From Deltaproteobacteria bacterium (GTDB lineage: Bacteria > Desulfobacterota > Binatia > UBA9968), in the NCBI GenBank assembly GCA_016193465.1, contig JACPSE010000186.1, positions 6,593 to 70,592 of the forward strand: a DNA stretch of 64,000 nt. The letters are read 5' to 3'. The position numbers and the translations under genes were made by a program. The stretch's first letter is position 1. Each line of letters begins with the position of its first letter. Of this stretch, positions 4,212 to 36,875 are shown piece by piece. Under the pieces are notes generated by a model that had not been told where the DNA came from, did not search any database, and worked only from the letters and a program-made list of their open reading frames with translations.

Positions 4212-4261
4212 CGGGAAGAGGGCCCGGCCTGCTTTCTTTAATAGCGGCTTCGACCTCTCGA

Positions 4262-4345
4262 ACGCACTGGCAAGGGGCTCGCTGGAGACAATTTTGAGTC
4301 CTCGGCAGTTGGCCTCAAAAGGAACTTTTTGCTATCATTTATTCC
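4262..4345. repeat. dispersed ~60-85 bp REP-like repeat, copy 1
   Basis: ctggcaaggggctcgctggagacaattttgagtcctcggcagttggcctcaaaagga is ~85% identical to 12530-12618. Confidence 0.6.
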
Positions 4346-11528: not shown

Positions 11529-11616
11529 GCTTCCGCGTCGAGCTCAATACATTGAGGGTATGACGCTGGCTGTCCGGCCGGCTCGGATCGCACCGAGAAC
11601 GACAACAGTGTCCTTG

Positions 11617-12517
11617 GGGTCAGGTCTTGCAATCCAATAGTGGATAAGATAGGCACAAGGCATGGCTCGGCCTCTGCGCTTGCAATATTCTGGGGCGCTC
11701 TATCATCTGACCTCCCGTGGCAATGCCCGCCAGAAGATCTTCTTAGATGACGATGACCGGGAGTTATTTATGAGCACCCTCTCTCATGTCATTTCCCGCC
11801 ACGGTTGGCTTTGTCATGCCTACTGCCTGATGGACAATCACTATCATTTGATAGTAGAGACCCCCCGGCCCAATCTATCTTTGGGGATGCGTCAGCTCAA
11901 CGGGATTTATACCCAGGCATTTAACCGTAGGCACCGTAGGGTGGGTCATCTGTTTCAGGGCAGGTATAAGGCCATCTTGGTGGAGAAGGAGGCCCATTTG
12001 TTAGAGCTTTGCCGCTACGTGGTGCTCAATCTGTCGCGGGTAGGGTCAAGGAGGGGGGTAGAGCAGTGGCGGTGGAGTAGTTATAGGGCCACGGCAGGTT
12101 TAGCCTCTGTGCCAGAGTTTTTAACTGTGGATTGGATCTTAGAGCAGTTTGGGCAGAAAAAGGGGCAGGCTCGGGCCCGCTACCGGGCCTTTGTCAGAGA
12201 GGGTTTGGAGAATCGGCTCTGGGAGAAGCTTAGGGGGCAGATCTATCTAGGGAGTGAGCAGTTTATAGAGAGGCATCAAAAGGCAGGGGAGGAGATAACG
12301 GAAGCACCGAAGGTGCAAAGGAGAGCGGTGAGGCCCGGCTTGAAGCATATCTTTAGCAGAGGCAGGGATAGAGGAATTGGGGTAGCGTACCTGGAGTATG
12401 GGTATCGGATGAGGGAGATTGCAGAATATCTTGGGGTTCACTATGCTACGGTGAGCCGCAGGCTGAGAGAGCTGGAGAAGAAGAGGAAAAGAAATGTATG
12501 ATTGCAAGACCTGACCC
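11617..12517 (+). mobile_element. compact element: IS200-like Y1 (HuH) transposase gene bounded by perfect 18-bp terminal inverted repeats
   Basis: GGGTCAGGTCTTGCAATC at 11617-11634 and its exact reverse complement at 12500-12517, the latter overlapping the transposase stop codon. Confidence 0.65.
11662..12501 (+). CDS. IS200-like Y1 tyrosine (HuH) transposase domain protein with a C-terminal HTH extension (RAYT-like)
   Basis: HuH motif NHYHLIVETP and catalytic Tyr in GHLFQGRYKAIL. The C-terminal REIAEYLGVHYATVSRRLRELE is an HTH. 279 aa. Confidence 0.75.
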   Translation: MARPLRLQYSGALYHLTSRGNARQKIFLDDDDRELFMSTLSHVISRHGWLCHAYCLMDNHYHLIVETPRPNLSLGMRQLNGIYTQAFNRRHRRVGHLFQGRYKAILVEKEAHLLELCRYVVLNLSRVGSRRGVEQWRWSSYRATAGLASVPEFLTVDWILEQFGQKKGQARARYRAFVREGLENRLWEKLRGQIYLGSEQFIERHQKAGEEITEAPKVQRRAVRPGLKHIFSRGRDRGIGVAYLEYGYRMREIAEYLGVHYATVSRRLRELEKKRKRNV

Positions 12518-12529
12518 TTTTATTGCCAC

Positions 12530-12618
12530 AAACTCGCTGGCAAAGGGCTCACTGAAGAAAATTTTGCGTCCTTGGCAGTTGGCCCCAAAAAGGAAATTCC
12601 TGTCACTGGTAAATTATC
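12530..12618. repeat. dispersed REP-like repeat, copy 2 (between the transposase element and the gshA 3' end)
   Basis: ctggcaaagggctcactgaagaaaattttgcgtccttggcagttggccccaaaaagga; see 4262-4345. Confidence 0.6.
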
Positions 12619-36485: not shown

Positions 36486-36875
36486 TAGAAGGGCTAAAGT
36501 GGATCGATAAGCCGGATTCTGTGGTGGCTCCTAGGAGAAGCCACAGCGATCATTCATCTTGCCCCATGATTGCTCACGGGGTCTAGCGACCTTACCCGAG
36601 GGCTAAGGGCGGACCACCCAACCCTCCTATTTGGTCTTGCTCCAGGTGGGGTTTGCCTAGCATCTACCATCACTGGCAGACCGGTGAGCTCTTACCTCGC
36701 CTTTTCACCCTTACCCACCATCAAAATTGGCGGGCGGTATTTTTTCTGTGGCACTTTCCCCCGATCGCTCGGGGCCGCCGTTAACGGCCACCCTGTCCTG
36801 TGGAGTCCGGACTTTCCTCTCCCGGCCATGCTTGTGGCAGAGCAGAGAGCGACCGCTTGATCCACTTTAGCCCGG
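36486..36875 (-). ncRNA. rnpB: RNase P RNA (bacterial type A)
   Basis: The minus strand contains GGAAAGTCCGGACTCCACAGGACAGGGTG, AGGGTGAAAAGGCGAGGTAAGAGCTCACC, ACCCCACCTGGAGCAAGACCAAATAGG and ACAGAATCCGGCTTATCG, which match E. coli M1 RNA conserved regions. P1 is formed by GGGCTAAAGTGGATC pairing with GATCCACTTTAGCCC as a perfect 15-bp stem. Confidence 0.9.

Follow-up and report, generated by a model that had tools for sequence, protein, structure and literature searches.

Positions 11616-12517 of a 64,000-nt stretch of DNA from a Deltaproteobacteria bacterium (assembly GCA_016193465.1, contig JACPSE010000186.1; the whole stretch is referred to here as the window) are best explained as an apparently intact TIRtron, that is, a unit of ~0.9 kb with one TIRYT gene, probably of TnpA-Y1 subclass 2.1, whose terminal inverted repeats (TIRs) are the ends of the unit. 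We put the probability of this reading at about 0.72. In the passages of the two papers on which we draw, RAYT-like genes (RAYT stands for REP-associated tyrosine transposase, and REP for repetitive extragenic palindrome) with long TIRs instead of REPs were named TIRYT/TIRtron (Di Nocera, De Gregorio & Rocco 2013, BMC Genomics 14:522, PMC3733652), and 20 of 26 TIRYTs were put in TnpA-Y1 subclass 2.1, which the authors equate with the TIRYTs (Quentin, Siguier, Chandler & Fichant 2018, BMC Genomics 19:475, PMC6006769). The window element is a further member of this published kind and is not novel. The original prediction, made from the sequence alone, had proposed a 'novel compact IS' (insertion sequence) as one of two readings, and on this point it was anticipated by the naming of 2013 and the subclass of 2018. 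Judged by its sequence, the element is probably mobile. Its features are as follows:

11616..11634, + strand: left repeat (TIR-L), G-GGGTCAGGTCTTGCAATC, of which 11617-11634 (18 nt) form a perfect pairing with the right repeat
11635..11661, + strand: spacer of 27 nt from TIR-L to the ATG, presumably a 5' leader
11662..12501, + strand: gene for a Y1/HUH transposase with a C-terminal helix-turn-helix (HTH), TIRYT type, assigned from the open reading frame (ORF), Pfam, NCBIfam and the predicted fold
11839..11847, + strand: codons of the HUH motif H60-Y61-H62 (cac tat cat), from alignments of relatives
12016..12018, + strand: codon of the predicted catalytic Y119 (RY-VVLN), from alignments and the profile alignment with 4er8
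12385..12483, + strand: C-terminal HTH, aa ~242-274, with recognition helix H260-Y-A-T-V-S-R266
12500..12517, - strand: right repeat (TIR-R), GATTGCAAGACCTGACCC on the + strand, with a 2-nt overlap with the TGA stop

Reading of the sequence and a pattern search found GGGTCAGGTCTTGCAATC on the + strand at 11617-11634 and, at 12500-12517, a sequence that is exactly its reverse complement; the two bracket a unit of 901 bp (902 bp including the G at 11616). The sole long ORF between the arms, 11662..12501 (+), encodes 279 aa and ends in a TGA stop (12499-12501) that shares 2 nt with the right repeat. This is the layout that the original prediction had described, namely a 901-bp unit with exact 18-nt inverted repeats that holds only a 279-aa gene and has its right repeat over the stop codon, and it was confirmed in each part. 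The two arms are the sole matches to the 18-mer in the window, even when 3 mismatches are allowed, against 0.05 matches expected by chance on average; two or more matches arose in only 1 of 100 dinucleotide-preserving shuffles. Repeat detection across the window returned the same arm pair (18 nt, 100% complementary, separation 865 nt). Pairing ends at 18 nt on both sides of the window copy, with outer neighbours g/t and inner neighbours c/a. The left tip (11616-11623) reads GGGGTCAG and, thanks to the G at 11616, is a complete GGGGWSAS motif, while the right tip on its own strand reads (a)GGGTCAG, matching 7/8 of that motif. The first G of TIR-L lies 45 nt from the ATG, close to the family median of 47 nt. 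With a full-length ORF and perfect 18-nt arms, the copy appears intact. A single arm is not self-complementary, carries neither a GTAG nor a CGTC tag and has no internal hairpin, which does away with the other original reading of a 'RAYT flanked by inverted REPs'. No Rfam family matched the TIRs, and a full-text literature search with the TIR sequence gave irrelevant matches only.

The strongest evidence that the gene and its TIRs form one discrete transposed unit comes from the closest relatives of the window protein, which have 92% and 83% aa identity and lie on three Logan contigs. Homology with these relatives runs from (T)G-GGGTCAGG... to ...CCTGACCC and is lost abruptly outside. The three contexts of the aligned copies are unrelated, and no target-site duplication was seen among them; the left flanks of the three closest copies read TTG, ATG and TTG. 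Homology that ends exactly at the repeat tips in unrelated surroundings is what marks the gene and arms as a single unit.

The insertion site itself was also compared with that of host relatives. The element sits in an intergenic spot downstream of a glutamate-cysteine ligase gene (GCS2), the homologues of which are labelled mostly Binatia or Deltaproteobacteria. It is absent from the host-relative contigs that carry the GCS2 gene (L200, 90% aa identity, and L201, 86%; L-numbers are our labels for sequences outside the window). Downstream of GCS2, both contigs have toxin-antitoxin genes in place of the ABC permease, and the site is thus variable in the lineage. The spot at ~11529-12618 holds the TIRtron, its counterpart at L200 5968-7334 a HEPN/nucleotidyltransferase pair, and that at L201 6344-7577 a PIN-domain gene.

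As the loci of the 18-mer scan described below had been picked by the repeat, a second sample of metagenome loci was picked by protein motifs only (47-67% aa identity). The core GGGTCAGGTCTT was searched for with at most one mismatch in the 62 loci with enough flank, and was present on both flanks in 43, on one flank in 13 and on neither in 6, so that 56/62 of these protein-chosen relatives carry it on at least one side. Among 47 non-redundant full elements from this sample, conservation at TIR positions 1-11 was 94% or more. Further in, at positions 12-23, both arms of an element were identical in 51-100% of cases, compared with 27-74% after arms had been shuffled between elements. Therefore, the family TIR is ~23 nt long; its tip is fixed and its inner half changes jointly on both arms, while the window copy pairs over 18 nt. 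In a comparison of the HTH helix with variant TIR cores, such variants were few. Consistent direct repeats were absent from the flanks of 61 full-size elements (the window copy and 60 others); target-site duplications, which the original prediction had recommended looking for, were found neither around the window copy nor at the rest. Both arms of a homologue of 43.6% identity from a Legionella adelaidensis plasmid carry GGGTCAGGCCTT. Only 9 records of a plasmid database carry a relative, one of them full-length, and plasmids are thus not an obvious vehicle. The protein search scored at least 8000 relatives. A large share of the close homologues lie on contigs of ~0.9-1.4 kb, about as long as the element itself. 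Such element-sized contigs are what assemblers yield for sequence repeated within or between the genomes of a sample.

An exact scan for the 18-mer in one genome per species (species representatives) counted at least 119 stretches that contain it, distributed over more than a dozen phyla. These comprise Nitrospirota, Methylomirabilota/Rokubacteria, Beta-, Gamma-, Delta- and Zetaproteobacteria, Acidobacteriota, Actinomycetota, Bipolaricaulota, Elusimicrobia, Planctomycetota, Gemmatimonadota, Omnitrophota, Thermotogae, Clostridia and Binatia, and the cultured carriers include Andreprevotia lacus, Thiococcus pfennigii and Methylomonas subterranea. The original prediction had named a single-copy unit whose 18-mer did not recur as the outcome that would count against it; the repeat recurs widely elsewhere, with no more copies in the window. 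Among the matches listed there are 150 exact copies, and 246 at up to 4 mismatches, which fall into four classes. The first are full units of 0.87-1.0 kb with a protein homologue between the arms; a homologue was present at 28 of the 119 loci listed, with 29-73% aa identity over the best segment and 50-62% for full-length matches. Two-arm miniatures of 44-120 nt form the second class (38 pairs among the matches listed), and in L040 and L089 they occur at least 3 times per genome with differing flanks. The remaining classes are solo arms and tandem arm arrays with a period of 34-35 nt. Several genomes have multiple or fragmentary copies of the gene (L038, L060, L068, L096, L105). The REPIN-like link that had been suggested for this locus holds to the extent that the arms are unit ends and that miniature two-arm hairpin derivatives exist in other genomes. 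Taken together, the repeats are the ends of a widespread element family, and are neither chance nor REPs.

Tandem arrays of whole arms were seen at L002 9-94, L032 1797-1849, L049 7858-7910 and L064 4888-4940, and a run of 11 degenerate arms lies upstream of a full element at L066 425-1161. In the flanks of several miniatures the palindrome reaches 3-9 nt past the TIR tips (L039 6034-6112, L076 4866-4933, L005 118-165, L019 5240-5283, L007 1451-1499), which is not general and does not apply to the window copy. These extended palindromes suggest that the miniatures either inserted at the centre of palindromes already present or arose by fold-back.

Duplications at the junction between flank and element recur in the relatives. 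An extra GGGTCA was found within 45 nt outside the element at 79/343 arms (23%), compared with 7/343 (2%) in a control window. At 41 arms, 6-14 nt of flank and the first bases of the TIR form a block that is repeated in tandem, and in 27 of these 41 clear junction duplications the TIR contributes exactly the 6 nt GGGTCA to the copied block. They take the form of [6-14 nt flank + GGGTCA] one to three times, followed by the full arm (examples are L105 1090(-), L045 1025, L067 1384, L096 3847(-), L123, L137, L202 and L203/L204). The window copy has no such duplication of flank and GGGTCA. From the sequence, the breakpoint after GGGTCA is a candidate cleavage or joining site. Either enzymatic cleavage at GGGTCA^GG or stalling of replication at the stem could produce it, and we do not choose between the two.

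The protein is identical (100%) to NCBI MBI2988759.1, 'transposase [Deltaproteobacteria bacterium]', from a 72.4-kb metagenome-assembled genome (MAG) contig. Pfam PF01797 (Y1_Tnp) matched aa 11-120 with 47.6 bits (E = 2.3e-12), well over its cutoff of 23, and no DDE family in Pfam matched. The top NCBIfam model by far was REP_Tyr_transpos with 71.5 bits, while transpos_IS200 scored 13.7 bits, far under its cutoff of 55; in the comparison of RAYT with IS200 transposases that the original prediction had called for, the protein thus falls on the RAYT side. Several HTH families, including HTH_23 (E = 2.3e-4), matched aa 242-274, all under their gathering scores, and a precomputed annotation with PF13384 is present on many close relatives. 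In the AlphaFold model this region folds into helices at 235-245, 250-257 and 261-277. The predicted pairing of a Y1 domain with a C-terminal HTH was thereby upheld, the former by a Pfam match above threshold and the latter by sub-threshold matches together with the modelled helices. The residues N59, H60, Y61 and H62 are invariant in an alignment of 18 diverse sequences (the window protein and 17 relatives), and HYH is present in 118/120 close relatives. Those four residues, Y119 and the HTH residues H260, T263, S265 and R266 are invariant across 17 diverse and 49 close relatives.

A fold search was needed to settle the Y1 fold, because a single-sequence search of the PDB with the transposase gave no match and a sequence-profile search gave only a weak top match to 4er8 (E = 0.045). 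Foldseek matched the AlphaFold2 model to the TnpA proteins of ISDra2, IS608 and IS200 and to TnpA-REP 4er8 (probability 1.00 throughout, E-values from 1.4e-5 to 2e-4). Of these Y1/HUH transposases, 4er8 aligned structurally over the greatest length (139 columns), and the profile alignment puts Y119 on the YIYINPV motif of that protein. At 279 aa the window protein is longer than the 165-aa E. coli TnpA-REP, with a C-terminal extension of ~140 aa. The transposase has a Y1/HUH fold and is nearer to RAYT than to IS200 TnpA.

Set beside the published TIRtrons (PMC3733652), the window element shares a RAYT-like Y1 gene, long TIRs that are not REPs, the tip GGGGTCAG, a TIR lying over the 3' end of the gene and a protein longer than RAYTs. 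In the parts of that paper used here, many TIRtron TIRs of the main type have GGGGWSAS in common, the TIR can overlap the 3' end of the gene, and some genomes have the TIR in single copies, dimers and groups. The difference is that the published alignment consists mostly of HVH proteins with GRPRK-like tails, whereas the window protein has HYH and an HY[AS]T[VI]SR helix-turn-helix. It also resembles subgroup 2.1.2 of Quentin et al., described in the sections consulted as having Bac_DnaA_C, HTH_23 or HTH_28 tails and no REPs (PMC6006769): the Y1 protein is long, has a C-terminal HTH with HTH_23 among its best matches, and has no REPs nearby. Those authors (PMC6006769) doubted that the HTH reads the TIR; the co-conservation found here suggests that it may. 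The passages drawn on from PMC3733652 and PMC6006769 make no mention of a core of 11-12 nt that is near-invariant between phyla, of the joint change of the two inner halves or of the junction duplications. In the literature searched, the names TIRYT and TIRtron occur only in these two papers, neither of which, in the same passages, has experiments on these proteins.

The IS200/IS605 elements end in separate subterminal hairpins and have no TIRs. The TIR arrangement is unusual only relative to that group. With IS608 and ISDra2, the window element has in common the Y1/HUH fold and the lack of a target-site duplication, and a single-strand mechanism is likely by inference. However, TnpA of that group is ~130-150 aa long, and the window element has a perfect TIR pair with no hairpin within either arm. 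REPtrons (Bertels & Rainey 2011, PMC3116915; Ton-Hoang 2012, PMC3333891; Messing 2012, PDB 4er8) share the enzyme class and a gene bracketed by an inverted short repeat that is also found as hairpin doublets elsewhere. Here they differ in three respects. REPs are singly palindromic (20-40 nt, with a GTAG or similar tag), whereas the hairpin in question needs both arms; RAYTs are ~150-200 aa without an HTH, compared with 279 aa and an HTH; and the gene in our element appears to move jointly with its repeats. From DDE-type insertion sequences with TIRs, the element is set apart by the absence of both a DDE match and a target-site duplication.

By analogy with IS200/IS605 and TnpA-REP, the substrate of the enzyme would be single-stranded DNA, such as that at replication forks. 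The two arms could then pair into one stem, with the gene, or the short spacer of a miniature, as the loop, and the invariant HTH helix may read the invariant base of that stem. The HUH/Tyr centre would nick and rejoin at or near the tips, as in IS608/ISDra2 and TnpA-REP, and the unit would move without target duplication. More broadly, we propose tentatively, and at rather less than even odds, that TIRtrons with HYH, this HTH and the GGGTCAGGTCTT tip are a currently active, horizontally spreading single-strand transposon present in over a dozen phyla. Its whole body would be the loop of a hairpin, its HTH would read the stem base, its Y1 domain would cut at GGGTCA^GG, and the hairpins of 44-120 nt would be its non-autonomous offspring, resembling REPINs or miniature inverted-repeat transposable elements (MITEs).

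Among the other explanations, the one with most in its favour is that of a domesticated RAYT with a REPIN population, in which a single-copy, vertically inherited gene disperses repeats genome-wide and is itself immobile. RAYT is the top NCBIfam model, the gene is single-copy in the window, REPIN-like two-arm hairpins occur in other genomes, sometimes without a nearby gene, and TIR repeat families are known as singles, dimers and groups from the portions of PMC3733652 cited above. However, the arms are not self-palindromic and lack GTAG/CGTC tags, and the gene and both arms travel jointly, as seen in the closest relatives, where homology ends at the tips in unrelated contexts. Host-relative contigs with the same neighbouring gene are without the element, the TIR core is shared with proteins of 44-67% identity across phyla, which fits horizontal spread, and several genomes have multiple or fragmentary gene copies, with no further arms in the 64 kb of the window. 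We therefore regard a domesticated RAYT as unlikely.

It is more improbable still that the inverted repeats are not transposon ends at all, and serve as operator half-sites for the HTH in autoregulation or for pairing between the 5' and 3' ends of the mRNA. The recognition helix and the core of 11-12 bp are both near-invariant, and TIR-L lies 27 nt upstream of the ATG with TIR-R at the stop codon, as such a role might have it. Against this, homology of the related copies ends exactly at the outer tips, and gene-less miniatures and solo arms are scattered in other genomes, which is unexpected of a pure operator. Nor was a promoter-like site found at TIR-L: no sigma-70-like promoter was predicted in 11600-11662. 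A regulatory role could exist alongside the function as ends. We give almost no credence to a new double-strand cut-and-paste IS, or to an ordinary IS200-like gene that has an inverted repeat around it by chance, even though a TIR-bounded layout of ~0.9 kb is like that of small DDE insertion sequences. Cut-and-paste is at odds with the Y1/HUH fold, the missing DDE domain and the lack of target-site duplication in 61 full-size elements, and chance is excluded by the shuffles and by conservation across the family.

Several observations weigh against the reading of an intact, mobile TIRtron, or against the mechanism proposed for it. No further copies, arms or miniatures of the element were found in the 64-kb window, and none of the GCS2-carrying contigs of relatives offers a clean pre-insertion (empty) site. 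The score of 71.5 bits to REP_Tyr_transpos is short of the equivalog cutoff of 80. Codon 124 (12031-12033) specifies Leu in the window protein and Pro in 118/120 relatives (NP[VLIM]R...); the motif that follows the catalytic tyrosine Y119 accordingly reads NLSRVG (P124L in the Y-x-x-x-N-P motif), and from the sequence this substitution may reduce transposase activity. Confidence in the AlphaFold model is moderate, the mean predicted local distance difference test score (pLDDT) being 66 (N-terminal domain 70-85, HTH 75-89). If both arms simply had to fit one protein, their co-variation would be expected just as well. Hairpin pairing in the single strand, the role of the HTH and the position of cleavage are all points that we infer, and the literature searched holds no experiments on any TIRYT.

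For the window, the outcome is mostly one of annotation, in that a gene labelled 'transposase' becomes a TIRtron with precise ends at 11616-12517. With at least 8000 relatives, TIRYTs make up a very large class that has been named but, in the literature searched, never tested. The regularities at the level of the family (the invariant tip, the covarying inner half, the lack of target-site duplication, the miniatures and the GGGTCA breakpoint) make its biochemistry directly testable, and the results could help to explain the relationship between REP/RAYT systems and autonomous Y1 transposons. If the reading as an active hairpin-loop transposon is true, a TIR-bounded HUH transposon would for the first time have defined ends, a defined cleavage site and a defined recognition logic.

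Lastly, a hairpin-forming intergenic repeat of ~75 nt lies beside the element at 12530-12605, with the core CTGGCAAGGGGCTCGCTGGAGACAATTTTGAGTCCTTGGCAGTTGGCC. A second copy is present at 4255-4330 (87% over 54 nt) and a third in the related MAG contig L200 (6699-6780); no Rfam family matched it. The original prediction had noted a REP-like repeat directly after the unit, and such a repeat does exist there, though it belongs to the intergenic region of the host and not to the element: it is on the right side only, with no copy on the left flank or beside the closest relatives, and has no sequence similarity to the TIR. On the same grounds it was rejected as a cognate REP. Possible identities are a REP-like element particular to the lineage, a terminator and a small RNA. 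Elsewhere in the window, at 36492-36868 (-), there is a bacterial RNase P RNA of class A (309 bits), an ordinary housekeeping gene.

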